DNA from: Takakia lepidozioides
Taxonomy: Eukaryota > Plantae > Bryophyta
Assembly (NCBI GenBank): GCA_030704615.1
Contig: CM060731.1
Coordinates: 48,546,001-48,610,000, forward strand
DNA length: 64,000 bases
Reading direction: 5' to 3'
Each line of letters opens with the position of its first letter. Position 1 is the first letter of the stretch. The position numbers and the translations under genes were made by a program. Shown here in pieces: positions 4,001-62,158 of the stretch. The notes under the pieces are model-generated. The model ran no database searches, was not told where the DNA came from, and was given only the letters and a program-made list of their open reading frames with translations.

Positions 4001-4880
4001 GAAGAGATGCTTGCAGCATGTGGTTGCCATCAAATGTCTTTGATTTGGAAGGACAGATGGAGATACAACATGTGATACCCTTGACAATTGTTGAATGGTC
4101 ACAAATCCATTGCAGTATGGTTACAGTCTGTTCGGGTCTTACATTTGCCATGTTAATCATAAGATTGCGATTTGTTTGCCTCAGGCACTATAAACTGGCT
4201 CTTTAAAAAAATGGAATAGAAACTTGGCTCCTGGATGGTTACAATAAGATCCAAAACATGCAATTGGCTTCAACAGCAGAAAAGATGGTGACCCTCTCCT
4301 GTGCTTGTACCCAATCATTCTGGAGTCAGGAAACTCAAAGTGTCTTGGACTACACCGAAGCGAGAATGGTTTGCTTATTTGACTTTAACTCACTTCCACC
4401 TCAACAAGTTTACTGAACTCCGGAAAAAAAACAGGGGTTAAGAAATTGGAGCGGTAGGAGGGGCCATGCAGAGTTGACTGTCTACGTTGCTAGACATAAT
4501 TGGCCTGCAGTTGGGCTGGCAACTTTTACGTAGATTCTACTCTTGGATCTATAATATTTTGACCAGGCTGACTATTGTAGTGCATTCCACACCCTCACCG
4601 GTTGGATTGAGTGAAAATTGTCAAAGTTCTGGAATGGGCTCACCTTGAATTGCTAACCTATGGAGGTAATTTTGACCCCCCCTCAAACACATACAAAATA
4701 TCCTAATAAAAACAAATGTAGAATACCAAACAACATGTTTATGGGAGGCAGAAGCAGGAAAAATGAACCTGTCACTCAAATAGCCTCAAATTTCATACTT
4801 TGCAAAATCTGAAAACCATAAAAAAATCCCACTAAAACACTATGCTCTCTCTTGTTGTGTGGTGAATGTTTCTGCAAATA

Positions 4881-5090
4881 AAGCCCCCCAAGTTTGGGTG
4901 GCCCTATCCATTAGAGAGTGGTCCACGAATTAAAAAGCAGGGGTTATAGTAAGCTAAACAAGGATTTGAATTAATAACCGTCATGTAAGAGGGTAAGTAA
5001 AGTAAAAAAAAAGGTAGGAAGGTGAGAGGTATTAAATTGGGGATGGTTCAGTCGCCGGTAAGAAGGTTTCTAGGGGTGACATGTGTAGGG
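4881..5090. repeat. Dispersed ~200 bp repeat, copy 1 (possible Mutator-like terminus)
   Basis: AAGCCCCCCAAGTTTGGGTGGCC...AGGATTTGAATTAATAACCGTCA...GGGGATGGTTCA...TAGGGGTGACATGTGT recurs at 50217-50435; lies next to a SWIM-family fragment. Confidence 0.7.
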
Positions 5091-5128
5091 TGGATGGATG
5101 GATGTAACAAGGTGGCGTGACGGTAGCC

Positions 5129-5619
5129 TCACTTATCTCGCCAGATGTCACTTTTTTGGGGGCTGAAATTTGCAATGATTTTGTTGATGCTTAGTCTTAG
5201 GTGCAAGTTGTGCGCTTCGCTGATGTGGGGGGCTAAAGCAATGCGACCACAATCATGTGCTGGCCCATGGCACATGTCTCCAGCTCGATTAATGCGTCTC
5301 TTCTCGTAGTACACGACCTCTGCAATCTTCGGGTCCAAATAGCATTGCTTCACTGCAAATCGACATACACATCCCCTCTTGATGCCTTCACCAGATTTCG
5401 TGTTGGACGTCCTCGATACTTTTGGTTTTGCACCTTGGCGGATACGACAACTCTTGCCTTTCTGCCCTTCTTCTTCAGAGGTCGCGGTTTCCACTTCTTG
5501 GCTGCCATGGCAGATGTAACCTCGAAGACGGCAAAAGTTTTATCCTCTGGCCCGAATGAGCAGTGGTACCTACGACAGAAAGCACATTGCATTACTGTAA
5601 TATGAGGGGATGACCGCAT
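5129..5619 (-). pseudogene. Frameshifted fragment of a plant SWIM zinc-finger / Mutator-like transposase-related protein
   Basis: Two overlapping frames give RYHCSFGPED and KRGCVCRFAVKQCYLDPKIAEVVYYEKRRINRAGDMCHGP, matching the YxCSxGPED / KRGCxCxFxVK...CHGP blocks I recognise from plant SWIM-domain proteins. Confidence 0.7.
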
Positions 5620-8036: not shown

Positions 8037-11000
8037 TGTGATACCCCACCCAACTAAGGTCGAGTTTTGGAGTTAATGAGCTCTTGGTGCCTGGAGAAGC
8101 CTGGAGGGGAACGGCCTCGGGACCCCGTAGATAACCTGGGAACAGGTTGTAATGGCAAAAACGTTTTGGTGTTAAAAAAAAAAAAAATGGCCTTTTTGAT
8201 CTAATTTAAATGTTTAAAGAGCCTGGTTGGTCATATCTTTGTCAAATGAGCTCCGTTTGACTCAGTTTTTGAGGGGATAGCTGCAGAAAGGGGAAATCTA
8301 TCTATCTGTTTTTGGGACTCTGCTAAAAATCTATGGAATTTTTAGAGTGTGAGTGTGTCGTGAAAGATCCACAATTCTGTTTCTAGAACCAATTCTGGCC
8401 TATTTGAGAGACAAATCTGTGGATGTCCTCCTTGTATGGCTGGGGGAAATGAGGACGTGATTGAAGGGCAAGTCTCTTCTCTTAGCCTGTGCACCAAAGG
8501 GGACAAGATTTATGTTTCCCAAGGAACTCAGACTGATTTGAGTGGAGAACAGTTGGACGAGTTGATTGCATACTGGGAGTCAGGTATTAGTAGTGGACAA
8601 CAAACTGCTGTGGTTGGCGTTGAGGGCCTCAATATCGCCTTGGACAGTCAGAACTCTGTTGGAACCAGCAGTTCTGCAGCTGTAGGTGAAATACCAAAGT
8701 GGGTGAAAGCTAGGCTTGGACCACAGCCAAAGACAGCCTCGGGGACCAAGGTGTTCAGCCACAAGGCCGTGGTGTACTGGAGCAGAGGAGCAGGAGCTAC
8801 ACAAGTTTGTGCAATTAGACATGGTTGCAGCCGGATACGCTCTGCACAGGGCAACCACGAGCGGGGGTTCATCAGCAATGACATGTTTGTTGTGCGTGAA
8901 GAGATGCAGTCATTCGCAATGAGGACACCCGCAACCGTCTCAAAGCTTTCGAGTTGAGAGACTATCAGACCCTATCTTTGTTTTCTTTAGTATTCAGTGA
9001 GCGAGAGATAGAGGAGTATTGCTTTGTCTCTACCTGGCAGAAAGAGGAGGAGGGTTGGTTAGAGCGAGCTACTGTAGCTTGGGACAAGGTTAGTGGCAGG
9101 TTTCTGGACATAGATATACCTCCTACACCTTACCATCATGCAGAGCGAGGCACTTTGAGAGAAGTCTGGCAGTTGATAGCATAGATCAGGATTAGATCTT
9201 GCTTGGTCGGGCTTCTATTCTTCCCCTCCATCTCTGTACTATTTTCATTACCTTGTACTTGTAGTTGCCAAAGCCTCTCTTGGTGGAGGCCAGTCAGTCC
9301 GGGGTTTTGGGCTGGGCTATTCTGCAGGATCAGCATTGCAGCTGGATTTTGGTGTGGGGGTGTTGATGTTTTGATTTCTTGTGTTTGGATCCCCCCCAAC
9401 ACCTGCATGCTTGACTGTGCGCCATGTTGGTTTTGTGTGGGCGCTTGCTTTCATAGGGATTAGGCCGGATTTGATCACCGGTCAATCCTAGAGTATGCTG
9501 TCGGTGGTGAGGCTGGAGTGATGACCAGCAAGACCACCAGTGTTTCTTCTATGGTGAGGCTGGGTTGATGACCAGCCAACCATAAGAGTTCTTGCGGTGG
9601 ATGCAGGTGCAGGTGCCCTGAGCCATTGGAATATGACCCTTAAACTGCAACAGGTGCCCACCCGTGTCACTATTAGATTAAGTACTAGAGCCTTATAGTG
9701 TCACGTGGAGGAGGTGCACATTGTGAGTGTCATTACGGAGTTACCCAAGGGTTTTGAGGGGAGTACGGCTACAGGCAGTAACAGTGAGAGTGGGTTCACA
9801 AGACGAGGTATTCGGTTCAGACCACCTTCACCGCCACCCTCAATTACTGTAGAGTCAGACACAGACTCGGAGGCTTCATCAACAGGTGTGCACTTTCAAT
9901 CGCCATTGTTGTGGGACGACATGGAGGAGATGTATGGAGCTACCAAGGGGCCTCATAGGTACTCTGGAGCTGTAGGCACAATTGAGTTGGATGACTTTAT
10001 CCAGGAGTTCGACAGCTGGTGTGATTTGCAGCAGATGCGCAATCCACAGCTATTCACCCCATTCATGGCGTGGAAGGGACTGTTCCAGCATTTGGAAGGC
10101 CCGCCTATGGACGATTACCACGAGTTCAGGCGAGGACATGAAGCAGAGATTGAGGAGTGGAGGATGTATTGGTCACCTGACTACGTCTCCATTACTCGAG
10201 GCACGACGCGACCAGTAGCTGCATCAGTACCAATAGCTCCCACTGCCAGCACTAGTAGTGGAGCAAGTAGTGCTGGTACTTCTGCAGGTGGTACCAGTTC
10301 AAAAGGTGCTACTACTCCTCCTGCCACGACTATAACACATGTGCCTAGATTCAACCCGGTGGTGGAGTTCTTCCAGGAGTTGCGGAGGAACTACCAAGAT
10401 GTACGGACAGAGAAGCTGCGAAGTTTGCAAGACTTCCAGCGCAAACCCAGTGAGAGCCTGCGAGAGGCGTACACTCGTATGAGGCGCTTGATAAGTGTCA
10501 CCCAAGGGGTTATTGAAGCTCAGGCAATCCAGTTTTGGTATGGAATTCTGGACAAGGAGCTCAAGAGAAGGGTGCGAGATGCAACCCTGTTACAAGCAGC
10601 CCAACCCACATTAGCAGATGTGTTTCTGCTGGCTGAGCGGATTGAGCTCAACATGGTGGAGGAGCGAGTTGTTACAATTGGATTTGGCAAGGACATGCCT
10701 GCACGGGGCACAGCTGTTAGCCCACAGGCACAAGGGACTGCCCAACAGCGTGGTCAGGGGGGCAAGGTTGCCCAGCCCAAGTTCCATGGAGCTTATAGGG
10801 GACCTCAGGTGCAGAGGCCCGTGACATCTTTTGCAGGCCAACAGCAACTAGGGGTGATATGTTGGACATGTGGAGGACCCCATGTCAAGAGAGATTGCCC
10901 AGAGAGTGGCAAAAGGCCGGCACAAGCACAGCCTGCACAGTTGTAGTGTGGGCATTGTGGCAAGTATGGGCATGGAGATGCCCAGTGTTATGACTTGCAT

Positions 11001-12935
11001 CCTGAGTTGCGCCCAGGCCAATTCCAAGGGAACAATGGTGGCCGGGGGTGAGGTGGACCAGCCCAAAGAGGACGAGGTGGTCGGGCACGAGGTGCAGGCC
11101 AAGGGCAAGCTCCACATGGCCAAGGACGCGGAGGTCAGGGTGTTGACCAAGGCATGGCCAATCGGCTTCAGCAGCTAGAGCAGAGGCTCGCTGCCATGGC
11201 TATAGCTCAGGCGGTACCGGCTCCCAGGCGGGATGGTCCACCTCTTGCTCCTGAGGGAGGAGATATGGAAGGCATGGGATTCATGTGCGGAGCAGCACTA
11301 CCACTAGAGCAGGTGGAGTCTGCTGCAGCCGTGACTCGAGGAGCAGCACGAGTTCCTGAGCCACGAGGTGCAGAGGTGGAATTGGATCCACAACGTGGGG
11401 AGGCAAGCCGTCAGGCGAGGCTTCCTCAGTCATTCACATTGGCGGAGACTGTGTCGACGCCATCCATGGCACCTAGTTCTCGCCCGACTGTTACCGAGAC
11501 GGAGGTTACTATGCCATTGGGGAGAGCTACACGTGCAGCACTGACACCTGCTACCAAGGCTAGTGCAGCCGGTGTGTTATTGGGGGCAGCCACCTCTGTG
11601 TGTCAAGCCCCATTGTTCTCGGCAACCATGATTGCGACGCCGGGGGTGAGGCCAGCTGCAGTGTTCAGACTAGCAGCAACACTCTGTGAGAGTGGGGAGG
11701 TCACTTCATCTTCTGCGGAGTTAGTGGAAGGTGTAGTGGCAGAGGGATCCTCGGATTTGAGGGTCAAGACTGCCACGGCTGCGTCCTGGCAAGCTGCAGC
11801 TGCCAGGTTGACGGAGCTGCCAGCTAGGCCAGCCTTTGAGCGCGCCATGGTGACACCTGGAGTTGTCTTGTTAGACAACCAGGGAGGCATTTTCACTTTG
11901 AGTGGACCGGCAGGCAAGAAGTACCGGCCACTGCGGGTCTTGTTGGACTCGGGAGCTCAGCCACTGATGTTGGGCAGAGCTGCTATTGCAGGTTTGGGCC
12001 TCATGGAGGCGGATATGGAGCCTTGTCCTTTCCAGATACAGACATCTCTGGGAGGATCAGAGCAGGCTCGGGGCATGACACGGCATCAGTTGGCCATTAG
12101 ACTACAGCCGGATCATCCTATCGATGGCTCAGTAATGCGAGCCAAGGCCATTGTGACAGACGCGGTCTCTTACGATGTCCTCGTTGGTGGGGCAGTGTTA
12201 TACCCCATGGGCTTCACCCTAGACTTTTGGGAGGAGTCAGCATCCTACAGGCCTGGATGGCAGTCAGGCGATGGTCGCCGTGCACAGCTCCCTGTGACAT
12301 TCATTGGGGGTATAGCGGCTGCCCAGCGGGGCAAGATGCCAACACTAGCCGCTTTTACAGCTGCAGTTAGTTGGCCTGGAGAGTTGCTGGAAGGCAATGC
12401 CCATGCAGAGGATGTGCCACCTCCAGCAGAGCAGGATAACATGCATGGTATGGCGGAGTTGCCTGCCATGGTTGCTCACACTCCATTGTGGGGTACGAGC
12501 AAGGATTTGCAGCAGGTTGCTGATCGACGTGTGCAACAAGCCTGGGTAGAGGCTTTTGTACCGTCAGGAGAGGAGGAGAGTGCGGGTATTGCACCAGGAC
12601 CACCTCAGTTGTCACCATTGGATACCACACCTATTGTGTGGCAGTATCCGGATGAAGGCATTTGCCTTCTGGACTTGTTTGGCGGGATCAGCACCGGATT
12701 GGCTGCTGTGCTACAGGCAGGTGTGCGGGTAAGGCGTTACCTGTATGTGGAGAGGGATGAGACTGCACGACGCGTCTCACTGCGCCATGTTGCTTAGTTG
12801 GTACAGCAGTACCCTGCTTTGTTGCGAGTGTCTGCAGTTCGTGGATACCAACAAGCCTTGCCAGCAGACATTTCGTTGCTGGGGGCGCTGGATTTGGAGC
12901 AGGTTGGCTCCATTGATCTGGTAGTGGCAGGTTTT
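8037..12935 (+). mobile_element. 3'-truncated LTR-type (probably Ty3/gypsy-like) retrotransposon carrying a C5 DNA methyltransferase domain
   Basis: Begins TGTGATACCCC (LTR-like start; boundary tentative) and contains an upstream ORF remnant and a gag-PR-MTase frame. RT, RNase H and integrase are absent from the window. Confidence 0.75.
9705..12935 (+). pseudogene. gag - two zinc knuckles - aspartic protease - cytosine-5 methyltransferase polyprotein, interrupted by 3 in-frame stops
   Basis: ORFs 9705-10946 and 11154-12797 share one frame, with stops at 10944 (TAG), 11049 (TGA) and 12795 (TAG). Gag-like LQDFQRKPSESLREAYTRM; knuckles CWTCGGPHVKRDC and CGHCGKYGHGDAQC; protease VLLDSGA...YDVLVG; MTase motifs LLDLFGGISTG (I), YLYVERD (II), PADIS (III), IDLVVAGF (start of IV). 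Confidence 0.85.
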
Positions 12936-12961
12936 TACTTTTTCTAACATTTTTCTGTATA

Positions 12962-13030
12962 GGGCCCTGGCCTGGTGGTAAGCCACTCGTGTATTGGCCA
13001 GTGGGTCTGGGGGTTCAAAGCGATTCAACC
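12962..13030 (+). mobile_element. tRNA-derived SINE-like head
   Basis: A-box-like TGGCCTGGTGG and B-box-like GGTTCAAAGC at tRNA-like spacing; no cloverleaf found. Confidence 0.4.
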
Positions 13031-13329
13031 CTGTCAGATGTCATCCTTATCCCTTTAGGCTAGGGGCTCTGCCCCGTAGTTTACAACTATTGTTTTAGCC
13101 AAACGCGCAACTAATTAATTTTCTATTTACTTGGACATTCTCAATGTTGTGCATCTAATCCCCCCAAACCATTGTAAACTTATTGTTACTAGTAATACAT
13201 AACATTCCACTCAGGATCTGTCCATATGTAATGTTTTTACCTACCATCTTGTATTATCTAGAACCGCCTCTACGCTATCCACATTTGCTCTGGATCTTGC
13301 TCGGGGTATAACTCCCTTACAATCACAAC

Positions 13330-13450
13330 GTCGGTTCTCTAGCTGGTTAGCTCGATGGTTTTTGCTGGTTCCTTCCCTGCGGGGGCATATGCATAACCGG
13401 CAAATAACCGCCGGATATGGATAACCAGATGCCATACCCGGGCAACACTG
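13330..13450 (+). mobile_element. Orphan right end of a hAT-type MITE
   Basis: AACCG/CGGTT-rich subterminal sequence ending CAACACTG, as in the complete MITE at 32245-32885. Confidence 0.55.
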
Positions 13451-13609
13451 GTACATACTACATGCTCTGCTTCTTTACAGATGTGATTAGTGAGTTGGAA
13501 AGTCACTAAGAACATTCTCCAATGCATTGTCATTTAAGGGTTGGGCTTAACCAGGTTGGCAAGTGATAAAAGAGGCCCAGGGTATGCTTTGACTTGCTTC
13601 CCGAGAGAC

Positions 13610-14329: not shown

Positions 14330-14877
14330 ATGAACTTTACAGATGTTCTGGCAGGTGTTGCCATGTTTTTGCCTTCTTCAGTTCAGTGACTAAAGACTCG
14401 CTTCAAAAGATCACAAACCACCTATACATCACAATAAAACAAGGGAGCACGATAAAACGTACCGTGGAGTAACTAAATATGCAGCCAGGATAGGTGCATT
14501 GGAACAAGGGCAGTTTCTCATCATGCTTAAGAAGGTGCTGCTTGAACTGTTTCTTCGACATGGATGTCCCACAGATGTCACATACTACCTAGCTATGTGA
14601 AACTCTTATGTGAGCTCTCAGTTTTCGAGGCATTGAAATATCTCTCCACAACCAGGCTCCATACATGCTACTGCTTTGTACTCAAAGGGCACCACTCCTG
14701 TCACAATACAACCTCCACAATTAGTAAAGTAACAAAGGCTATTCTGCAGTTGGTCACAATCTCTACAGCAAACCTGCACAATTAGCGACATAACTAAGGC
14801 TACTGTACGGAGTAAACAGGTGAGTTCTGTAATAATAGCCTGTTACTATCCAGCAACAACTAAAGACCCTGTAGTCC
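14330..14877 (-). pseudogene. Duplicated ~550 bp TFIIIA fragment (one exon, 14463-14697, plus flanking introns)
   Basis: Closely matches ~53555-54115 in the same orientation. The exon copy has TAT>TAG and a 1-bp deletion relative to the intact exon. Confidence 0.95.
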
Positions 14878-17054
14878 CATCATTTTCCTCACCTTTGCAG
14901 CATCATCCCAGCTGCAGCTGCAGCATAGATGTTTGACAGCAAAACGTAAGTTGGCGCATCCTATTGATCCCACTTGAGAATAGATGTTGCCACACGTTCT
15001 GCCATCTCTACATTGCCATGAATTCTGCAGGCACCAAGCAAGGCCTTCCACACCACAGCATCTGGTTTGATTGGCATTTTGTTAATGAAGTCCTCTGCCT
15101 CATCCAACTGCCCAGCACGGCCAAGAAGGTCCACCATGCAGCCAAAGTGCTTTACTGTTGGAGTGACGTCTTGACTCAGGGAATCAAAGTAGTGTCTGCC
15201 TTCATCCACTAGGCCAACATGGTTACATGCAGAGAGAACACATATAAAAGTGATACCGTCTAGCTTCAAGCCTTCCTTTTGCATTCCCTCAAAAAGTTGC
15301 AGAGCCTCCCTATGATAACCATGCCGGGCATATCCTGCAATCATTGCATTCCATGACACCACATCTCGTTCAGCCATATTGTCGAACACTTCCTTTGCAT
15401 CCTTCATGCTCCCGCATTTGGCATACATGTCCATGATCGTATTGTTCAGAACCATATTTGGTACAATTCCAGCTTTGACAATGTCACCATGGACCTCTTT
15501 GCCCTTTTCCAGGGCTGCCAGGCTGGCACATGCATTGCAAACGTTAACAAACGTGACCTCATTGGGTGTCACCCCTTCCCGCAACATTTGCTCATAGGTC
15601 GCCAAAGCCTCCACCCCAGGCCCATGTTGGGCATATCCTCCAATCATCACATTCCAGGACACCACATCTCGTTCAGCCATATTGTTGAAGACTCCCTTTG
15701 CATCCTCAAAGCTCCCACATTTGGCATACATGTCCACCAGGGCAGTGCCTAGAATAAGCTCTGGTACAATTCCAGCTCTCATGATATCACCATGGACCTC
15801 TTTGCCCTTTTCCAGGACTGCCAGACTGGCACATGCATTGCAAACACAAACAAATGTGACCTGGTTGGGTTTCACCCCTTCCCACATCATTTGCTCATAT
15901 GTCTCCAAAGCATCCTTGATGCTCCCACATTTGGTATACATGTCCACTAGGGCAGTGCCTAGAATGACATCTGGTACAATTCCAGCTTTCATGATGTCAC
16001 AATGGACCTCTTTGCCCTTTTCCAAGGCTGCCAGGCTGGCACACGCATTGCACACGCAAACGAATGTGACGCGGTTGTGCTTCACGCCTTCCTGCATCAT
16101 TTGCTCATAGGTCTCCAAAGCCTCCGTCCCACAGGCATGCAGGGTATATCCAGCCACCATCGCATTCCAGGAGACCACATCTCGTTCAGCCATATTGTTG
16201 AACACTTCCTTTGCATCCTTGATGCTCCTGCATTTGGCATACATGTGTACGAGTGTATTGTTCAGAACTGTATTTGGTACAATTCCGGCTTTCAGAATTT
16301 GACCATGAACCTCCTTGCCCTTCTCCAGGCTGGCACACGCATTGCAAACGCAAACGAACGTGATCTGGTTGGGTGTCCACCCCTCCCGCATCATTTTCTC
16401 ATAGGTTTCCAAAGCCTCCTCCGCCAACCCATGCTGGGCATATCCTGCAATCATTGTATTCCATGACACCACATCTCGTTCAGCCATATTGTCGAACACT
16501 TTCTTTGCATCCTTCATGCTCCCACATTTGGCATACATGTCCACAAAGGTATTGTTCAGAATCAAATTTGGAACAAGTCCAGTTTTCATGACGTCACCAT
16601 GGACCTCTTTGCCCTTTTCCAGGGCTGCAAGGCTGGCACACGCATCGCAAACACTAACAAACGTGACCTGGTTGGGCTTCACCCCCTCCCACATCATTTG
16701 CTCATAGGTCTCCAAAGCGTCAGGCAATTTGTTGAACACTAGGTGTGCATCCACAATGCTCCCACATTTTATATACATGTTAACAAGGGTGTTCTGTAGA
16801 AACAGGTTTGGCTTGACTCCACTTAGGAAAATGTGAGGATGCACCTTCTTTCCTGCTGCTAGGCCTTTCATCTTGATGCACTTTTGCAAGAGACAGACAT
16901 AGGTATCTGAATCTACTGAACTGCCTCCTTGGTTCAAGATTTGCAGAGGCGCTTTCAGGCATCCTGCCTCACATCGCATCCTTACATGCCCAGAACCGCC
17001 TGCAGAAATCTTCTGGCCTCCCTCTCTCAGTCCTCTTCCAGAAGCAGTGGTCAT
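14861..17054 (-). pseudogene. PLS-class PPR protein with a damaged E extension and no DYW domain; probable pseudogene (ORF 14961-17054)
   Basis: Repeated P-L-S triplets (DVVSWNAMIAGYAQHG / PNQVTFVCVCNACASLAALEKGKEVH / NTLVDMYAKCGSMKDAKEVFDNM) followed by an E motif. A stop after KWDQ is followed by DAPTYVLLSNIYAA and a frameshift to WDDAAKVRKMM; there is also an upstream in-frame stop at 17067-17069. Confidence 0.9.
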
Positions 17055-17179
17055 AGCACAGGTGCTTCATTTTATCAACTGTGCTGCCCCTGCTGCTTCC
17101 AGTTGACTGTCTAACCATGCAGGTTTCTTGCAGCTATGAATCCACAGCGGCTCATTGGTACTCTTTTGCTTGAAATCCA

Positions 17180-24615: not shown

Positions 24616-25123
24616 AAGGGAAAAAGAAAAAAGAAGGGCTAAAAGGGCCTAGCACAAGTTGCTTGGTTGCATTAATTTGCCATGAAAGGAAAAAGAGAGA
24701 GAGAGGGAGGGCTAAAGGCCCTAGCACAAGCTTCTCGGCTGCATAATTTTGCCATGAAAGGACCAAAAAAAAAGATGGAGGGCTAACCTCCACGGAGGTT
24801 GTGCTGACTGCGCAGCTCCCTCCCCCGTACTCGTACCCGGCTGCTCCCTCCCCCCCGGCGCTGGTGCACTGCTCCACAACCAAACCCAAAAAATAAAATA
24901 AAATAAATAAAAAAATCCCTAGTGCGGGAACCGGATCCGGAACCGCCACTGACCCCCCAGTTCCAGTTCCAAGCCAGTTCCTGGAAAAACCCGCACCCGC
25001 CGGTTCTGGTTCTGGAACCGGCTCGTCCCTGCTCCCCCGGTTCCGGTTCCAATACCGGTTCCCAGGAACCAAAACCGGAACCGCCGGTTTCAACCCGCCT
25101 AAGTGGGTACCCGCACAACACTG
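24616..25123 (+). mobile_element. hAT-type MITE, right part, with an internal ~75 bp direct repeat
   Basis: Dense GGAACCGG/CCGGTTCC subterminal repeats; ends CAACACTG. Confidence 0.65.
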
Positions 25124-25920
25124 GTGCTAACCATCTTAGTAGAGGTTCTAAAAAGATAATAAATAGGTATGGACTGAGGGTGTCACCCTGGATGGTACCT
25201 CGTAGGACAGGAATAGGGGGGGTAGTACCATAATATGAGCCGGAGTATTCCGTAGTGCTGTTGGTATAGATGTTGCCAATGAGTTGGATAGTATCGATAG
25301 GGTAACCGAGGTCCGTCATGATTGCAAGGTCTGGCATGATCTAAGGATCCAAAGGCATTTTTAAAGTCTATATATAACAGATATCTTGTTTAGTGAGCTT
25401 GGCATCTTCGAGGGCTGAGAGGACGTATTATATTTGACGGGTTGTGCTATGTGTGGCTCGGAAGCCCTCCTAGGGGTCGCTTAGAATATGGTGTTGTTCT
25501 CCGTAATTGGATAGCAGCGTGGTCAGTGTGCTGGTAAACCATTTATAGATAGTGTTGGCTAGGGCTATGGGTCTGTAGTTAGGGTCTAGGAGGTGCGACT
25601 ATGTTTCCAAGTGGGGGGGATACGCTTGCGTTTGGTAACATTTTGAAAAAATTGAAAGAAGAGGGGTATTAAAGATAGGGTAAGCGCTTGTTAATATAGC
25701 GTTAGGGATCATATATGGCCCAGGGCTTTTGATTTGGTAGACCTTTAAGCATAGTCATAGAGATCTAGCGTGAATAGGTCATATATGCGGTCCGTGGGTA
25801 TCCCACGTTTGTCTAGTGAGAATCCGTCGAGATCATGCCATGGGTAATGCTTGACTTTACATAAACAGGTGGCGGGGTGGGGGTCCGGGGTAGGCCGTTC
25901 ATAATTAGTAATAGTAGATA
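25124..25920 (-). mobile_element. Non-LTR RT fragment of a third family (RTE/RTEX-like)
   Basis: NYRPIALANTIYKWFT, EGFRATHSTTRQI, DFKNAFGS, GTIQGDTLSPYLFIIFLEPLLRWL. The clade assignment is tentative. Confidence 0.75.
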
Positions 25921-28239: not shown

Positions 28240-31200
28240 CGCTATTGGCGCTAGAGTGGCGTTGCTCAAAGTGGTTGGATTTTATTGGTCCTACATTCTC
28301 TTTCACCACTCTAACTCCCAACCATTCGGATATCACTTGAAAGTTTTTATAATTGGTCCTAAACTCTCTTCCACATTTGTTAATTGTGGATACTTTTGCT
28401 TATCATAAAACCTCAAAACCCATTTGAAGCTCGTTCAAACTTATTTTCCAATTTGGATAGGATAGAATGGATGGAATATATAATTGAAATAGGTCCTAAA
28501 CAACCTTCCATTTTTTTTAATCATTGATACTTTTGTTTACCCTACATACTATACCACCAAAAACCTTTTTCCAATGTGTGAGGCCCATTCTTTTTCTTTT
28601 TTCAAAACTTTGTAGTAGGATAGAGTGGATTGGATTGAGATGTGGAGTGGATTGGGATATTTAATAGAAATTTGATAGGTCTTGAACATTCTCCAGTATT
28701 TGTTTGTTGTTGATATTTTTGCTTATCCTAAATCTTATACCCAAAAAACCTCTTTCTAATGTTTGCAGAAACTCATTCAAAAATTATTATTCTAACTTTG
28801 GAGGATGGTAAGAACTTGAAAATTTTGTAGGTTCTACAGACTTTTCCATATTTTGTACTTGATAGTACTTTTGTTTATCCCAAACCATGTACCGTAAAAT
28901 CTCATTATCATGTTTGAAGCTTATTCAGGTCATGTTTTTAGCTTTGGGGTACAATATAGTGGTTGGGATATTTGATTGAAAACTTTTATAGCTTGTCCTC
29001 AACAATACGGCATAATTTCTTGTGATTATACTTTTGCTTATCCTAAAACCTATACCCTAAAACCTCATTTGAAGCTTATCTAGATTTTTAGAGAAATCCA
29101 ACTTTGGGATACAATAGATTGGTTGAGATATTTGATTGAAAGTTTTGATAGCTCCTAAGTGCTCTTACATATTATTTTTGTCATTGATACTTTTTCCAGG
29201 CTTTTCTATCCTAAACCCTTTACCGTAAAAACTCATATCCATGTTTGAAGCTCATTAAAAAACAAATAGCTTTGAGGTACGATAGATTTGGAAGATTTGA
29301 TTGAAAGTTGTTATAGGTTCTACACGGTCTTTCATTTTTTTTTCTTTTTAAACTTTGCTCATCTTAAACCGTATACCCTCAAACCTCATGATTTTCATGT
29401 TTAATTTAGCTCAATGCTCAGAAAAATAAATTCTAGCTTTGCGATATGTCAAATTTTAATATTAGTTGGGAGATTTTATTGAAAGTTTTTATAGGTTCCA
29501 ATATATATTATTCAATTTTCTTTCTCATCGATACTTTTGCTCATCATAAACCTTATACTCTAAACCTCACATCCATGTTTGAAGCTAATTCAAACAAACA
29601 AATTCCGGCTTTGGGGTACTATTAAAGTTGTTGAGATATTTAATTGTTTACTAATTTTATAGGTCCCAACCAAATATTATTTGTTTTCATTGATACTTTT
29701 GCTTGAGATCCTAAACCCTACACCCCAAAAACCTCTTTTAACATTGAATTCATTCAAAAAAATTCTAAGCTTTAGGATAAAATAGAGCGGTTGGGATATT
29801 TAATTGACATTTTTTTTATAGGTCTCATGAACTCTTGTAAATTTGTATATCATTGATATTTTTGCTTACCCTAAGTGGTCACGGCCCTTTGCCTTGAGGA
29901 GGGGGAGTCGGGACACACGAGGGGCTGTCCCCGTGGTCGAGGCAGCAGCAGTAGTATGAGTGGGGCCTGAATGACCCAAAAGGGTAGAGGCGCTCACTAT
30001 GTGGACCCCCACAACTAGGGCGTGGGTGGGGGCTCCGAGTGAGGTGGTCGTAACATATGGAGTTGTAGTGGGGGTGGCATAGGACTTACCGCGAGGCTGT
30101 GCCTATCTAGTGGGAGTCGTGGAGAGCCTTGGGGCTCACCGCGGTCACCATGGTGGGTGGGCCAACGACTCATCATAATGAGTCGAGGTTCACAGTGTGG
30201 TTCACCAAAAAGGACTTGAACTGTTGTGACTCTCCCGCCGACACCTACAAAAAAAAATATAAAAATAGTAACCCCGAGAACGGTGCAAACCCATTAAATG
30301 CGCGACCAAAAGCTAGTAAAGTAAGTGATCGAGCCGGAAAGCAACCAAATGTGGGAAGCTAGTCCGGACTTCATACTTCCACTCATCCTATTTAGTCATG
30401 GTTGCATGGGGAAACAAAAAGGGACCGTTATGCCTGATGAGCAACCGAGCTCCGAGTTGGTCCGACGGCCAATATGGGAGTTAGGCGTGCGCACCGAAGT
30501 GAGTAATTATGATTTTTACCAAATTGAGGTGCGCAAATAAACCCTATATCCCATATTTTTTTTTTCCAAATATTTGAAGCTCATTTATTTCTTTTAAGTA
30601 AGATAAAGTGGTTGGATTTTTAATTGAGATTTTCATGGGGTCCTAAACACTCCCACATTTTGTTGTTGTCGATATGTTAAACTAGCCTAACCTTATACCA
30701 GAAAATCTTATTCTAATATTTGAAACTCATACAGATTTTTTAAAAAAAAATGTGGGGACAAGATATTAGAGTGGTTGAGATATTGAATTGAAAGGTTTTA
30801 TATAAACACTCTCCCAAATTGTTTTTGGTCATGCTTATCTTAAACCCTATACTTAAAACATAATTCCAATGTTTGAAGCTTGATTAATTTTATTTTCCAG
30901 CTTTAGACGTATGATAGAGTATTTGGGGTATTTACAAGTGTTGGACTGTTATAGAGGGTTGACCCGGTTATCAACCCGGTCATTGACCCGGTTATGAGGT
31001 ACCATACTCGATAGTTATAGGTTGTAGGAAAATTTCACTTGTAACAGACCCGTCGGGTCTTTGCAACGTGGTTTTTCCTCATAAACCCTACCCGGCTAGG
31101 GTTTGCTGTTTCTACTCGTTGTTGATACCAGCCGCCTTTTCTCTGTTGTCGTTCCTGGTATGAGCATGGGGTAAGGCGGTAGATATGGTAGGTTTAGGAA

Positions 31201-31860
31201 TGCAATCAGCGGCATATTTGGTGGATTCAGGAGCGCGATCTGCTGGGGATTTGGGAGGGGGCATTCAATCGCAACAACAATCGGCTTTGAATGGCCAAAG
31301 ACATGTAGTTGCATTATGCATGTGTTGAAGTATACATGTTTTGAATGTGTGCACTATGTTGACTAAACTATTGATACCCGCTGTTGATAACGTGCAATAT
31401 AACATTCTGCAATACCAGTCTTGATAACCGAGTCAAAAAATTACAGAACATGCAATATTGATACTCACTGGTAATAAAATCCATAAACTTTTTAATATTC
31501 GAGAACATGTCAGAGCACGAAATTATGAATCCTTCCTACCAGGAGGACCCGCATGTTATCATCAAAAGTTGATAACTTACTTGAAAATTTTTATATGTTC
31601 TAACTTCAATATTTTTTTGGTTGATAGTACTTTTGCTTATCCCAAACTATCACTCAAATGTTTGAAGCTCATTCAAATTCATCTTTTTAGCTTTGGGGTA
31701 CAATATTACAGTGGTTGAGATATTTGATTTGAAGGTTTTATAGGTTCTAAGCATCTTGCATATTTTTCTGTGATTCATACTTTTGCTTACTCTAAAGCCT
31801 ATATCCATAACCTCATATCCATGTTTGAAGCTCATTAAGTAAAACACGTTTCAATTTTTG
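28240..31860 (+). repeat. Degenerate AT-rich tandem repeat, monomer roughly 135-185 bp, in three blocks (28240-29875, 30540-30935, 31570-31860)
   Basis: Recurrent order GTGGTTG(G/A)GATATT - AAAGTTTTTATAGGT - GATACTTTTGCTTATCCTAAA - TTTGAAGCTCATT; about 13-14 copies by eye. Confidence 0.85.
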
Positions 31861-39147: not shown

Positions 39148-41311
39148 ATGAGTGTGCAGTATAGGCCTGAGCTGGGTACCATCAGTCTGACACCACGGTT
39201 TCCATTAGACAGAGAGAGAGAGTACTTCTATGACACGGCCGCCAACTGCCAGCAATCATCAAGCTTCCAGTCTGTGAAACAAGCATATGTGGAGAAGCAG
39301 AGGCAAAGTCAATCTGGAGTAATGAGGTTGAAAAATCAGAGCTCTCCAATCTCCCCTCTCTCTCCACAAGAGTCATCACCAGTTCTGTCTGAGGCAGCTC
39401 CCAGCTTGCAGGGCTGGAGCCCTATTTCACATCATAGTGAAGTATCATCTCGAAGTGAGGCCTCTTTGGAAAGTCAGTCTCTTCAGGACGAAGCTGACTT
39501 TTACGGGCGGTCCTACAATTGCGGAGAGCAATCACACAAGACCTCCTCTTATCCTAGCCCGTCTTCTGTTCTAAGATCCACTAAGTGTGCAACACCATAC
39601 GACATGACAACTTACGATGCAGGGATAAGGCATGCCGCAGAAGAACACTATGCACAGGCACGGAGTGATTACGGGACCTCACAAATGTCTAGTGATGTGG
39701 TGCACATGTTGCAAATTCTGGAGACTGCATTATTGGGACCGGATGATGATGACACTGATCTGGCAGCACCTGTGTATCAGGGAAGTGATCCCCCACCTGA
39801 CGGAAGTTGGACAATGGAGGAACTGCTTGTTGGCACTTCTCCTCTTGACTGTCAATTGGAGATTCCAGGAAGCTCTGGTGCTGTTCACACTTCATATTCC
39901 CGGCAGTATCAGAATGCTAGTAATCTAGTTTATGAAGAAGCGATCACTGAAAGGGTGAGTCTCGGACTGTCTTGGTAGAGAGCCTTTAAATCGCTTGTAC
40001 CAGTAATTCTTTTGACGTGGTTTTGTTGTTCAAGACTCTTAGACTTGTATACCTTCTTAGGGACTCCCATGTGGTAGCTTAAGTTAAGGGGAGGAAGGAA
40101 ACATTTCCTCGTTGCAGCTATGTTAAACCTCGCGTTGCATGCTCCAGGTGACAGAGGCACAGCCAGTGAGAACACTCGTGGAGACTAGGAGTCGGCCAGA
40201 GCAATTGTTGGTGGCTTGTGCTGAAGCTGTGGCAAACAATGACGTGGCACTAGCACATGTGGTTATTGCACAGCTGAACCAGGTGGTGTCCATCTATGGG
40301 GACCCAATGCAGCGACTTGCTGCCTACATGGTAGAAGGACTTGTTGCCCGCATGGCTTCCACAGGAAGAGGCCTTTACAAAGCACTCAAGTGCAAGGAGC
40401 CACAGTCCAAGGACCTACTCTCGGCTATGCAAATCATGTATGAGGTCTGTCCCTACTTCAAGTTTGCATATATGTCAGCCAATGGTGCCATAGCAGAGGC
40501 CTTCCAAGACGAGGAGAGTGTTCACATCATTGACTTTGAGATTGCCCAGGGCAGCCAGTGGACCACCCTCATCCAAGCTTTGGCTGCCCGACCAGGTGGC
40601 CCCCCACGGTTGCGCATTACAGGGGTGGATGACCCACTGTCAGAGACCTTACCCACAGGTGGGCTCGAGGTACTGGGTGAGCGGCTGGGAAAGCTTGCAG
40701 AATCTGTGGGGGTGCCTTTTGTGTTTCATGCAGTGGCAAAGAAAGGGACAGAGGTGGAAGGGTGGATGTTGGAACGGCACGCCGGGGAAGCTCTTGCGGT
40801 GAATTTTGCACTTCAGCTACATCACATGCCTGATGAGAGTGTGTGTACGACAAATCCCCGCGATCGCCTCTTACAACTGGTGAAGAGCCTCGGGCCTAAA
40901 GTGGTCACACTAGTTGAGCAGGAAGCCAACACCAATACCGCCCCATTTTTGCCACGCTTCATGGAAGCCTTGAGTTACTATTCAGCAGTCTTTGAGTCTC
41001 TGGACATTGCTTTGGCCCGAGAAAACCAGGATCGTGTGAAGGTGGAGCAACAATGTCTGGCCCGTGACATTGTCAACGTAATTGCTTGCGAAGGTGCCGA
41101 GCGAGTGGAGAGACACGAAATGACGGGCAAATGGCGGGCACGGATGACCATGGCGGGCTTTCGTCCTTACCCACTAAGTGCTTCAGTGAATGGTACAATC
41201 AAGACTTTGCTCGAGTCTTACAGCGAGAAGTACAGACTCGAAGAGGAAGGTGGAGCACTGTTCCTGGGCTGGTTGAATCGGGCCCTTGTTGTCGCATCTG
41301 CATGGCACTAG
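39148..41311 (+). CDS. GRAS transcription regulator, PAT1/SCL1 branch; join(39148-39954, 40148-41311), 656 aa
   Basis: GDPMQRLAAYMVEGL, YEVCPYFKF, VHIIDFEIAQGSQW, LHHMPDESVCTTNPRD, RVERHE..GKW, VASAW; phase-0 GT-AG intron; probable 5'UTR intron ~37586-38989. Confidence 0.95.
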
Positions 41312-46737: not shown

Positions 46738-48478
46738 TTTTTTTTTAATTTAAAAAAAAAAAGCTGAAGTGCACCACCTCAGCCGCTGAGTGCTTTTATT
46801 GAAGGACATAAATCGTCTGGGAGTTGCAAAATGGGGGGTAAGGAAAAAATAACCTTGTAGGAGGCCATAGAGGCTGAGAAATGAGTCATTGCTCTAGGAG
46901 TGACCAGTACAAGAAAGGAAGCAGAACTGAAGAACCGAATGAAGACAAAGATCGCATGAAGACAGAGCGTCCAAACAATCTACAAAAGCAGAATGGAGAA
47001 CTCAGAATTATATTCTATGCACTGCCGCGCTTATGTTTAGGCTGGCCGAATTGGGCCTTTGATTTGCCTTTCTTGAAGGATTTTCGGTGGCGCCAATAAA
47101 CCTTTGTTTCTTCGCCGTCAAGAGGAGAATGCTGGATGCTAATCGAGCTTCCTGCATTCTGGGATGATGTCAAACCACTGAATGGTCGAGTCCTGCAGCA
47201 GAGGACCCCCCCCCCCACCACGTACTGTCAAAGCGAGCAAACAGTTGAGTGTGTCTCCGGTCTGAGCACCTTTGTAAAGCTGCAAAAAGCACTACCCACG
47301 CTTTCCTTGCCTCAGATAATAAGTTTGAGTGAACCCTGAACAAGACCTTTTTCAGACAGGGACTAGTTCTTTCAAACATCAGAGAGCATATGTTCTTCCG
47401 AAGGTTCCACAGAGTGAGACCTCTTAAGGATTCCCAAACAGGGCAAGAATGCCAGATAGTCCCTCCTTAAAATTGAGAAGAAGAACTGGAATGGAGAAAT
47501 CAAATCCACTTAGAATAAAGAACTGCAATCAGATGCCAAACACTCATAGTGAAGGGGCATTGAACGGGACAATGTTCAATTGTTTCTTGAGCCTGAGTGG
47601 AGCATACAGAATAAAGAGAAGGGTTCTCAGAAAACATAGCACCAACTGGAATATTCGATTAACAATCTTCCATAGGAAAGCGGAGACCTTGGCTGATCTG
47701 TGTTTTTTCCAAACATCAGCCCAAGGAAGTGGGATGCCCAGGGATGTGAGACCACTTGGCAGACCATTTGCGATCGAATTTATGAGGTGGTCTGAGAAGC
47801 ATGTAACCCAGCTTGACTGAATAAGAGAAAAGGTGATCATGCTTTTTATTCATCCATATCCACTCCCTTGGGTCGAACTGAAGATCTTTCACCGGAGCAA
47901 AGATGAACTAGATCAGGTTCTGCGAGGGAAGTGACAATCCAGAAGGAATAGGATCAAATTTACCCGAAATGGCGCAGGAAACCTTGATAGGATGGAGGGG
48001 AGTAGTATAGGGAGAAGGGTTCGTTTAGGCAAAAATAGAGAACCATCCAGGTTAACATTGAAGCAACAATCTTCAATTTTATCATCTAGTGAGCGCTCAG
48101 CAAAGAAAGGTAAGGCTTTCCCATCATAGAAAAAACATAGGAACACAGGGAAATCACCTGTCACCGCTCCCAACAAAGAGCAATACGATAAGAGGAGAAT
48201 CCCTCTACTGCCTGACTAGTGGAGATGGAGGAACCCGAAACCACATCCCAAATATGAGTTACATGGGAGAGACCAGCAGCTTCCCATGGAGCCCATCTTT
48301 TAAAGCATGGTATAAGCAGCTCTTTATCACGGTTAAAGTTGCCAAATAGTGGCTGTCTTAGCCTCGTCTTAGCACTTCGTCAAAGGACTTAGGGCATAGC
48401 TGCACAAGAAAGGGTCGAATCTGGCACCAAACAGACCAAATGGATTGCCAGGCTTGCCAGCCTGAATTGGGAAGAAAG
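46738..48478 (-). mobile_element. 3' part of a degenerate L1-type LINE
   Basis: zf-RVT-like W..VWK...SAKVSAFLWKIV; AATAAA and an A-rich tail on the minus strand near 46738-46800. Confidence 0.6.
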
Positions 48479-50140
48479 GAACGCCCAAGATCCGGATGCC
48501 GTCAGATGGTGTGAGAAAATAGGCAGGTGGCGAAAAGCCAGATGGTAAACCGGATGGAGACCACACGACACACTTACGAGGTTGAGCAGAGAGCCCCATA
48601 GAGTGCAACTGGGTGATGAAATGATTGTAAGTCGGGAGGACCTCGGATGCCGGACCAACGATGTGGGTGTCATCTGCAACAGAAGGGAATAGACAACAAG
48701 GACATGCTTGTGCAAACGACGTAAGAGCGTGCACATGCGCCATGGCAAAATGAGGACCCCCTAATGGATCGCCTTGACGAGTGCCCACCTCGGACTGTAT
48801 GATACTGTAGTCGCCTATGCAAGAATGGTGACTGTAAAAGAGAGGAGCACCAGATGTATAGAACAGTCTGACAAAAGGGATAAGCTGATGAAAATCAGCT
48901 CCAGCAGAATGGAGCTCTTGAAAGATGGTAGCGCGTGAAACAATGTTGAAGGCGTTGTTGACGACAACTTGACGGACAACCCAGTCAGGATGAAGGTCAA
49001 GTGTGGCGTGGATCCCGTGTACAACATCTTCACAGCCTCCTGGAGTGGCAACGCCGAACTCTTTAGCCCGGGTGTGGCAAGATATCCGGAGGGGTTTGTG
49101 CAGCAAGAGCGTGTGCACGGAGATAGTGCTCTTCTTGCAGACACTCCCAATCAGATAGAAAACGGCAGAGACGGATGCGTGTTTCTCTATGACCAGCATC
49201 ACCACCGCGTGGGGGCAAGACCAAACACTACTGGCAAGAGAAGATGCCAAGCAGGATCGCGGGCCAGACGGTCCAGAGGCATGCGAAGAGCGTGTTGAAC
49301 CTCTTGTCTTAGTGCCAAGGGGATCCGTGTATAGAGGCGAGGCCGAGGCAATCCCAGATGAAAAGCGCCGAGGACATCTAGAGTGGAGAGCCAAACCCAT
49401 GTAGAGGCAGGAGGAGTGGGTAACGCATGTACAGGGATGGATAGAGAAGAACCGTTAGAGTGGGGCTGCCGAAAAGCCGAACAAGTGCGCTGTTGGCGGG
49501 CAAGGCCTCTGATCCGAGCAAATGGTCGTCCACAAGCAGGACAATGAATGCGGTCATCACCTGGAGAAGCTTGATTGGATGTCGATGGCGGCGCTGATGG
49601 AGCAGGTGGAATAACTGGGGGAGATGGCAAATTCATGAACTCTCTGTTGAACACGGGGTGGAGAGCCAGGTAGGGAGGTGAATAGCATTGGGCGTCCATG
49701 CACTTCGGTGGAAGGTCTCTGGAGCACAACGACTTTGGGTTGGTTTGAGTTCAAATGTACCACTGGTGCTGACTGGAGTTGTGTTGTTGTTGTCCGGTCG
49801 CACATGTACTGATCATTGCAGGAGGCCTGAGGGAGGGGGTGGACTGACCGCTCCTCAGGTTGTTTGTGGATATCAGAACTCGGGGGTCATGTGGAAGTGG
49901 TGTTGGTGCAGGTGATGGCGGTGTCGAGGTGAACGCTGGTGTTGGGAGATAGGATCCTGAATTGCTGTGGTGGGGATGCTGTGGACAATGGGGCTGGTGT
50001 TGGAGCATTACGGGGCCTTTGCGCGGGTGTGGGGCCCACCCTGGTTATTGACGCCTCTGCTATGAGGACATTTGCGGATGCGTGGATCCGTTGCTCGGCG
50101 GCTGCCCAATGCCGTGATCGCCATCCAACTCGCAATCTTT
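48479..50140 (-). mobile_element. Second CRE-like element copy, internally deleted
   Basis: CPACGRPFARIRGLARQQRTC, FGVATPGGCE, NAFNIVSR, GTRQGDPLGGP, VADD, GIRILGVPF; collinear with 18163-21295. Confidence 0.85.
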
Positions 50141-61051: not shown

Positions 61052-62158
61052 TTATGCTTTCTTTGCAGCTACGCTATCCGCCGGTTTTGCAACTTCATCC
61101 GAACTGCCACTGATTTCGGGTCGTTTGGGGCTCCTCTCGTCTTCTTCGATCTTCACCTTTCCGGTGACAACAGTGCGTACAGACCGCTTTCTCCTAGGCA
61201 CAACTGCTAAGCCTAGAAAGTGAGTCCGGAAGTAGCTGGAGCTTTCTTTAGTAGACTTCTGATCAGCAACTGGAACTCTTGAGGTTGAAGTGAGCGAACT
61301 CGGAAGGGTGGAAGCGAGGCCCGAATTCTTGGGAAGAGCGTTTTCTCGAGCTAAGTCCCCTTGCAAACCCCCTTGCAAGTTTTCCGTACAATTGGCATTT
61401 CGCCCGGTTGACGAACTTCTATGCAAATCCCCCTCCTGCTTGACGACCTGCCCCTCCCACGATTTAGCCGATTCAGGAGATATTTTTATTTGGATGTTAA
61501 CCAGCTGGTGTCTATCTGCGTCGTTGATAGTTCTGCCATTCTCTGTAGCGTCATCCCCACCTGCTGTAGAGGTTGGAGCAGAAGCAGCTGCATCTGGTTC
61601 TAGAGATATAGCTACTGCAACTTCTGATAGTGTGGTTAAGTAATTCCTAGTGATTGAGTTGGTGTCCAAACATTTGTCTTGTGATAATGACCTCAGTTTG
61701 CACCCCAATGAGCAGAATTCAGCCAGGGAGTCTTTCTTCAGACGCCATCCACATATGGTGCATAGTAAGACCTTGCTAACCTTCTTTGCCTTCTCATGAG
61801 CCTTCTTCTTGTACTTTTCAGGCACATAAGCTGATCGAAGATAAAAGATTTTTCGGGCGTTGATCATATACTCTTGGATTCCGGTAGTATCTACACGATC
61901 TTCAGCGTCTCTCAGACCTTCTATGTCGTCAACGTGGATTGCATTTCTCCGAGATGCCATTCGCACCTGCAGATTGTCATGTCCTTGGTGTTTGCAGGAG
62001 GCCAGGTTACAAAACGCAGATTTGCAGATGTGGCCTTCATGGCATTTCAGGCAGAAGAAATTCAAACATAGTTTGCTCTTCCGACATTCATTGCATGGAC
62101 CAAAGTACTCTGCCTCCACGAAATCCTTCATCCATTTGGGAAAGTCTTGGCCAGCCAT
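61052..62158 (-). CDS. PLATZ-family zinc-binding transcription factor, single exon, 368 aa
   Basis: PKW....YFGPC, NFFCLKC, HQGHDNLQVR, DTTGIQEYMINARKIFYL, CTICGWRL...FCSLGCKL. Confidence 0.88.
   Translation of the reverse strand: MAGQDFPKWMKDFVEAEYFGPCNECRKSKLCLNFFCLKCHEGHICKSAFCNLASCKHQGHDNLQVRMASRRNAIHVDDIEGLRDAEDRVDTTGIQEYMINARKIFYLRSAYVPEKYKKKAHEKAKKVSKVLLCTICGWRLKKDSLAEFCSLGCKLRSLSQDKCLDTNSITRNYLTTLSEVAVAISLEPDAAASAPTSTAGGDDATENGRTINDADRHQLVNIQIKISPESAKSWEGQVVKQEGDLHRSSSTGRNANCTENLQGGLQGDLARENALPKNSGLASTLPSSLTSTSRVPVADQKSTKESSSYFRTHFLGLAVVPRRKRSVRTVVTGKVKIEEDERSPKRPEISGSSDEVAKPADSVAAKKA

Follow-up and report, generated by a model that had tools for sequence, protein, structure and literature searches.

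A decayed Ty3/gypsy-type retrotransposon copy carrying part of a DNMT3-like cytosine methyltransferase in the bryophyte Takakia lepidozioides

Results

The methyltransferase-bearing copy

A stretch of 64,000 nucleotides from Takakia lepidozioides (GCA_030704615.1, contig CM060731.1, positions 48,546,001 to 48,610,000 of the forward strand; hereafter the window) harbors a decayed retrotransposon copy in which the beginning of a cytosine-5 DNA methyltransferase (MTase) follows the aspartic protease (PR). As had been proposed in an original prediction made from the letters alone, gag, two zinc knuckles, a DSG protease and MTase motifs were all found in one frame, which extends from 9702 to 12944 on the forward strand, comprises 1081 residues and is broken by exactly three point stops (10944-10946, 11049-11051 and 12795-12797). 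The ATG at 9921 is the likely start codon of this first open reading frame (ORF1). By motif scan, the CCHC knuckles were located at residues 387 and 416 of the frame and the protease motif VLLDSGA at residue 746. The gag region matched PF03732 with E=0.002, short of the curated cut-off, and the Pfam matches of the protease were weak (E 0.05-0.07). LDLFGG at residue 990 is followed by YLYVERD, PADIS and IDLVVAG, the piece reaching from motif I to short of the catalytic PC dipeptide. Homology to MTases stops at 12933, after 93 residues. When the piece was compared with the PDB, DNMT3A was the best match, at only E=0.049, and held the first 16 places among 31 rows.

Elsewhere in the 64 kb window no further MTase, reverse transcriptase (RT), RNase H (RH) or integrase (INT) of the same family was detected. 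No long terminal repeat (LTR) pair or long repeat was found around the copy, and Rfam and tRNA scans gave no match. The upstream open frame listed in Table 1 had neither a Pfam nor an Atlas match, and other copies differ from it by single-base insertions. A second protein-like stretch lies in another frame and reaches 9180; together with the upstream frame it may represent an additional 5' ORF belonging to one subfamily. The sequence TGTCGTG at 8356 was considered as an element end and rejected, as other copies differ there.

Table 1. Features of the retrotransposon copy and its flanks in the window.
Feature	Position	Strand	Evidence
Multi-copy 5' region (leader or repeat), approximate 5' limit	8110..9920	+	Contig depth
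Upstream open frame, 197 aa stop to stop, ATG at 8436	8364..8957	+	Lies in repeated region
Gag-PR-DNMT3 ORF1, decayed (three stops), 3' end cut	9921..12933	+	52% identity to Marchantia polymorpha protein P0003 over 972 residues
Gag capsid region	9951..10697	+	PF03732; phmmer and tblastn to P0003
Two CCHC zinc knuckles, first stop between them	10860..10988	+	Motif scan
Aspartic protease (LLDSGA)	11880..12305	+	Pfam, motif, homology to relatives
DNMT3-like C5-methyltransferase, N-terminal 93 residues	12657..12933	+	77% identity to complete MTase of P0003 over 93 residues; DNMT3A in PDB; tree group 100/99
Unrelated, moderately repeated DNA replacing rest of element (truncation junction)	12934..13468	.	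Fall of X1 depth

Sister copies in the same organism

Four public runs (X1, X5, X6 and X7) supplied contigs that were aligned to window positions 8800-13600, with contig depth taken as a sign of repetition only and not of copy number; X7, possibly an RNA run, was not taken as a sign of expression. Repeat depth was high up to 12933 and dropped sharply beyond, in X1 from ~500,000 to ~4,000 after 12933 and to 36 beyond 13468. On the 5' side, depth in X2 climbed from tens to hundreds and thousands between ~8110 and ~8300, and one X6 contig (depth 82) spans 8436-9607. At 9347, two different multi-copy upstream sequences meet one leader in loose ends of X1, X2, X5, X6 and X8, but not of X7, which suggests two subfamilies with different 5' parts joining at this position.

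Past 12933, the frame runs on into WPCQG, which is catalytic motif IV, in loose ends from 43 X1 contigs, 4 X5 contigs and a single X6 contig. Further, the stops at 10944 and 11049 are private to the window copy, a sense codon being present in ~99% of the X1 depth and in all X5, X6 and X7 depth. Since sister copies read on to WPCQG, the window copy is a decayed, 3'-truncated member of a multi-copy family having the catalytic centre, and its predicted end short of PC was confirmed; as these sisters come from the same organism, it is not a one-off fusion. After the truncation point, a T-rich stretch ending in AG (12931-12970) resembles a 3' splice site, and it is followed by 7 bases which match the family's own continuation after the break near 12933, possibly a microhomology.

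Relatives in bryophytes and green algae

A search with the PR and MTase piece returned 26 longer proteins of 37-63% identity, 16 from Marchantia polymorpha, one each from Calypogeia fissa and Sphagnum fallax and 8 from others. PF00145 was passed by 17 of them, the remaining 9 being short, cut or without motif IV. With M. paleacea, Riccia sorocarpa, S. troendelagicum and S. jensenii, which were added by later searches, the fusion was seen in six named bryophyte species and in Calypogeia. Full-length ORF1s with intact motifs are present in Marchantia polymorpha (P0003, P0390, P0397 and P0398). Among charophytes, Klebsormidium nitens GAQ93235.1 and Closterium GJP34393.1 have the order gag-PR-MTase as in the window; the PR and MTase regions of GAQ93235.1 align colinearly with the window frame (E=8e-15, 23% identity), and its gag region does so weakly. 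Chlorophyte relatives were found in Hariotina, Scenedesmus, Haematococcus and Monoraphidium.

A profile search gave 540 representatives at E<=1e-30, the upper ranks of which were inspected. The 222 proteins that were classified comprise 53 whose MTase follows PR or precedes RT (layout A, its named members being streptophytes), 132 whose MTase sits between RNase H and integrase (layout B, its named members being chlorophytes), 34 with the MTase only and 3 without it. The chlorophyte Gypsy polyproteins read PR-RT-RH-MTase-INT-PHD (P0092 from Hariotina, P0421 from Scenedesmus, P0081, P0082 and ~130 more), and P0092 has in addition a weak Tudor-like match. An element-type MTase or polyprotein was also met under bacterial names (P0160, P0341 and P0085; Obscuribacterales, Leptolyngbya and Spirochaetia) on contigs of 2.4-2.7 kb, probably plant or algal sequence that ended up in metagenome bins.

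Type, fold and selection of the enzyme

The complete MTase domain of Calypogeia matched DNMT3A with E=8e-11, followed by DRM (4e-7 to 2e-4), HaeIII/HhaI and DNMT2. An AlphaFold model of the MTase domain of locus L011 (pLDDT 88.8) found DNMT3A/B as best folds, with E about 1e-19 and TM about 0.7, far above DNMT2, and ~21% identity to human DNMT3A in the structural alignment. The homologues show the canonical motif order I-IV-VI-VIII-IX-X; PCQ, ENV and RxR are kept in intact copies, and PC, EN and R-x-R in a nine-row alignment spanning both layouts. No introns and no DUF3444 were found in Pfam scans of the homologues. A host DRM identity was rejected, as the permuted order (VI-X before I-V) was not seen in homologues. 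Judged from sequence and model, the element enzyme is thus a predicted DNMT3-like C5-methyltransferase of canonical motif order, and of the DNMT3/DRM-like assignment made earlier the DNMT3 half stands and the permuted DRM half falls.

The ratio of non-synonymous to synonymous substitution rates (dN/dS) of the MTase among loci L014, L015 and L016 was 0.12, 0.11 and 0.10, with similar values for the protease (0.09-0.10). Between the window fragment and L005, L011 and L021 it was 0.11-0.13, at near-saturated dS. These substitution patterns indicate that the MTase is under purifying selection, with dN/dS about 0.1.

Architecture of whole elements and the in-frame stop

Twelve of 52 metagenome loci had the order GAG-PR-MT-RT-RH-INT, and in all 26 loci holding both PR and RT the MTase lies between them. 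Full relatives read gag-PR-DNMT3-[in-frame stop]-RT-RNaseH-integrase-PHD. Locus L014 is intact, its open frames of 1369 and 1047 aa being separated by TAG CAG TTA; Pfam identified PF00145, RVT_1, RNaseH, H2C2, rve and PHD, the last five in ORF2. The best PDB match of ORF2 was Ty3 Gag-Pol (E=4e-98), and no tyrosine recombinase family was found by Pfam scan in the frames of L014, L015 and L011. Ty3/gypsy traits seen in relatives are an RT/RH closest to Ty3 and a DDE integrase with H2C2. The family is a Ty3/gypsy-type lineage with its own C5-methyltransferase between PR and RT, as had been foreseen from the window alone together with the preference for Ty3/gypsy over DIRS; a DIRS identity was rejected, given that protease and rve are present and the recombinase family was not found. 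What the original prediction had not included is that the enzyme ends ORF1, a conserved in-frame stop preceding RT.

This stop was examined in 26 loci. MTase and RT are kept in one frame in 21 of these, and the stop was at the same position in 21/21 (13 TAG, 8 TAA); this count excludes L006 (insertion) as well as L027 and L028 (duplicates of L026 and L023). The 21 loci represent fewer independent copies, because several are near-identical (L032/L034, L022/L024 and L001/L013). The stop is followed by CAR in 19/21 loci and by the full CARYYA in 4 (L011, L014, L015 and L016); UAG-CARYYA is described as the tobacco-mosaic-type read-through signal (PMC4132726). In L014 the first Met of ORF2 is residue 117, inside RT, whereas Ty3 homology begins already at 79, and read-through is therefore favoured.

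Ends, target sites and priming

End structure was read from the Sphagnum-type family, whose locus L005 is 89-100% identical to named Sphagnum proteins over parts. L034 and L042 are complete with the arrangement A-coding-B-A-B, and L005 is partial. A is 339 bp and B about 113 bp long, both have the form TG...CA, and the first B is preceded by a purine tract; in four loci the outer end is B alone (A-coding-B). Two identical full LTRs (TG...CA) at both ends were not found in relatives. Of the fuller copies that had been anticipated, those with PCQ, ENV and RxR followed by RT-RH-INT were thus obtained, with permuted A/B repeats instead of paired identical LTRs.

A 4-bp target duplication was present in 4/4 loci with both outer ends (L023, L025, L034 and L042); L001 and L037 have a matching 4-bp flank and were not counted, as they are only 97.5% alike. 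The B/A joint forms a short inverted repeat around two bases, also in the distant L014. Taken with the A-coding-B(-A-B) ends, the target duplications fit integration from a DNA circle. The sequence after the first A pairs with a stretch of A that lies ~25 bases downstream of a TATA-like box, over 16/16 bases in 4/9 copies (control maximum 14), and L034 showed a fold z=-4.0. Such pairing fits self-priming of the type predicted for Tcn1/Tf1, in the case of Tcn1 in mosses (Neumann et al. 2019, PMC6317226).

Repeat pairs of 650-810 bp with 72-76% identity were noticed in L006 (2438-3077 / 4811-5457), L025 (2162-2812 / 11086-11729) and L042 (6476-7282 / 10286-11076), one or both copies lying inside the element; they likely represent a small non-autonomous element that was inserted repeatedly. 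L023 (13619-14515) and L028 (4923-5819) have a rearranged 3' end consisting of an inverted internal piece, a partial A, the primer site and then B, and L023 still has its matching 4-bp target duplication.

Phylogenetic trees

In an RT tree of 84 rows (quick method, no outgroup), the 10 layout-A rows fell on one side of a branch with SH-aLRT 99. The MTase tree comprised 60 rows, among them 22 of 74 layout-B rows and no host DNMT3, and was rooted on 8 phage enzymes; a viral-contig scan yielded 30 loci, all partial phage-type MTase matches of 27-53% identity, which served as tree outgroup only. The window fragment joined Marchantia, Calypogeia and Sphagnum-type rows in a group of nine (100/99), and layout B formed one group (86/94). 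MTase distances covary with RT distances (Mantel rho 0.39, n=84), with rho 0.92 within the 10 layout-A rows, near-copies among them.

Discussion

The reading we consider probable is that the window holds a dead, 3'-truncated Ty3/gypsy-type copy of a family whose ORF1 encodes Gag, a protease and a DNMT3-like enzyme that likely methylates the element's new cDNA. RT-RH-INT would be obtained by leaky read-through of the UAG-CAR stop, and since these parts would need read-through, the MTase would be made at the level of Gag, packed in many copies per particle and freed by the protease. Cytosines of the cDNA would be methylated before integration, and new copies would arrive pre-marked, either host-chromatin-like or deamination-resistant. 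Reverse transcription likely self-primes; its standard course from these primers would yield B-A...B-A, and the integrated A...B-A-B would be such a molecule circularised and cut at B/A, while A...B could be a one-repeat circle or a B-by-B deletion. The integrase likely cuts circular cDNA at the palindromic B/A joint and not at linear ends, its PHD finger likely directs targeting via histone H3 tails, and the lineage is likely old and common to the Klebsormidium element. The widest version of this proposal, one ancient lineage from chlorophytes to bryophytes with an active DNMT3 at capsid stoichiometry, cDNA methylated in the particle, chromatin reading by PHD, integration from a circle by a DDE integrase and intact ORF1s unlabelled in the gene set of Marchantia polymorpha, is put forward tentatively and is somewhat less likely than not.

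Several observations weigh against the proposal. PF00145 is not matched by the window fragment alone in the Pfam scan, because the fragment is cut before motif IV, so that the suggested PF00145 check succeeded with the homologues and failed with the fragment. The MTase dN/dS was 0.71 between two young decayed Sphagnum-type copies, a value expected from decay after insertion. Eight of the 21 stops are TAA, 17/21 are without the full CARYYA, and MTase and RT share one frame without a stop in the layout-A proteins P0041, P0083, P0489 and P0491. The Sphagnum-type family has an ATG three codons past the stop and may use re-initiation or splicing instead of read-through. Self-priming pairing in the other 5/9 copies did not exceed the control, and stop context and end structure are known from relatives and not from the window copy's own family. 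At its base the MTase tree shows a polytomy, in which the Klebsormidium row is not grouped with the bryophyte rows. Finally, KnitGypsy-Dnmt3, the element of Klebsormidium nitens, gave no methylation in yeast, which its authors call inconclusive (de Mendoza et al., PMC5890265).

The last two points bear on alternative explanations. The MTase domain might act on RNA or on an RNA:DNA hybrid, or function within the particle as a nucleic-acid binder or a decoy. This would suit an MTase that closes the Gag-level ORF and a Klebsormidium domain inactive on yeast DNA, and RNA methylation was suggested for the DNMTs of LINE ORF1 (de Mendoza et al., PMC5890265). However, the catalytic PCQ, ENV and RxR are retained in intact copies, fold and sequence are nearest to the DNA-acting DNMT3A/B, and the related Dnmt3 of SymbioDIRS methylates CG DNA (PMC5890265), so that we regard this role as unlikely.

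Independent acquisition or horizontal exchange of DNMT3 by land-plant, charophyte and chlorophyte elements, with the land-plant family a separate invention, would account for the different MTase position in streptophyte-type and chlorophyte-type elements and for the polytomy with Klebsormidium apart from the bryophyte rows. Against it stand the colinearity of gag-knuckle-PR-MTase with GAQ93235.1, the odd A-coding-B-A-B repeats as reported for KnitGypsy (PMC5890265), the INT-PHD tail common to both layouts, and a mean MTase identity of 36% across layouts A and B as compared to the value for human DNMT3A given above. Independent origins therefore seem doubtful. A single capture of DNMT3 by the element lineage appears likely from these comparisons, and it is graded no higher because host DNMT3 is not in the trees. 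The land-plant family is probably of the same kind as the charophyte element and not an invention of its own.

Another idea, that the enzyme has host chromatin as its main target in trans and thereby silences competing elements, older copies or defence genes, is decidedly improbable. Gag-level synthesis would yield surplus enzyme and the integrase PHD is similar to histone-reading PHDs, but the MTase is without a targeting domain, packaging as a polyprotein speaks for action within the particle, and the K. nitens methylome is not unusual according to de Mendoza et al. (PMC5890265). A unique joining of a gag-PR fragment to a host DNMT3/DRM piece, or a chance motif match, could invoke the missing PF00145 match of the window fragment and is refuted by homologues in the bryophytes named above, by the many sister copies with the same fusion, by the domain in 26/26 PR+RT loci and by the absence of introns and DUF3444 from the Pfam scans.

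The closest known element is KnitGypsy-Dnmt3 (PMC5890265), of which we infer GAQ93235.1 to be a copy. Common to both are the Gypsy domain set, an intronless DNMT3-like domain under purifying selection and A-coding-B-A-B repeats. The window family differs in its land-plant host and in the conserved in-frame stop between MTase and RT, whereas the MTase of KnitGypsy-Dnmt3 is described as part of the Pol ORF with RT; as MTase and RT of the window family share a frame, one protein would result if the stop were read through. By the main-text description of KnitGypsy-Dnmt3, the PHD tail sets the window family apart as well. The main text of PMC5890265 does not mention PHD, read-through, target sites, Marchantia or chlorophytes. 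SymbioDIRS-Dnmt3 and SymbioLINE-Dnmt of dinoflagellates share the retrotransposon-borne C5-MTase, and SymbioDIRS-Dnmt3, the enzyme of which methylates CG in yeast, has A-coding-B-A-B repeats too (PMC5890265). Unlike SymbioDIRS, with its tyrosine recombinase, and SymbioLINE, the relatives of the window family have an aspartic protease and a DDE integrase.

With Tcn1, Tf1-Sushi and other REXdb clades the family shares PR-RT-RH-INT and target duplications of 4 or 5 bp; compared by description, it differs from Tcn1 and the REXdb clades by a PHD in place of the chromodomain, the extra MTase and the permuted repeats, and the accessible text of that survey does not mention an MTase domain for these clades (PMC6317226). 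The host enzymes PpDNMT3a/b (Yaari et al. 2019, PMC6453930) have the DNMT3-type catalytic domain and fold in common with it; host DNMT3 is a cellular gene with a C-terminal DUF3444 and DRM has permuted motifs, neither of which was seen in the window family. For element DNMTs, PMC12344493 names 'streptophytes and dinoflagellates', citing PMC5890265, and an element-borne DNMT in land plants is not reported in the accessible parts of PMC11982613, PMC6453930, PMC5784723 and PMC9861306. In agreement with the earlier statement that no land-plant family was established, no report of a land-plant or chlorophyte element of this design was found in the literature, subscription papers being outside coverage.

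Plants defend themselves against transposons mainly by DNA methylation. An element keeping its own de novo MTase in land plants would therefore turn this host defence around. The difficulty of working with the hosts left the function of element-borne MTases unsettled in 2018; with full-length ORF1 copies in Marchantia polymorpha the question is now open to test in a genetic model. These Marchantia loci are not in the five-gene MTase count given in the accessible part of the Marchantia methylome paper. Two further peculiarities of LTR-element biology, the putative read-through stop and the apparent integration from circles, can each be tested on their own.

Other features of the window

Host genes in the window encode a PPR protein (14961-17066, reverse strand), a GRAS protein (40127-41311, forward strand) and a PLATZ protein (61052-62158, reverse strand), which mark the host as a land plant, while the nearest relatives of the element copy point to a bryophyte. 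Weak RVT_1 matches at 48369-49454 and 24783-25340, both on the reverse strand, are decayed RT pieces and do not match the RT of the window family. An AT-rich dispersed array of degenerate units of ~160 bp occupies 28360-31860, and a segment of ~530 bp is duplicated 39.2 kb apart (14346-14877 and 53583-54115) with 95-97% identity.

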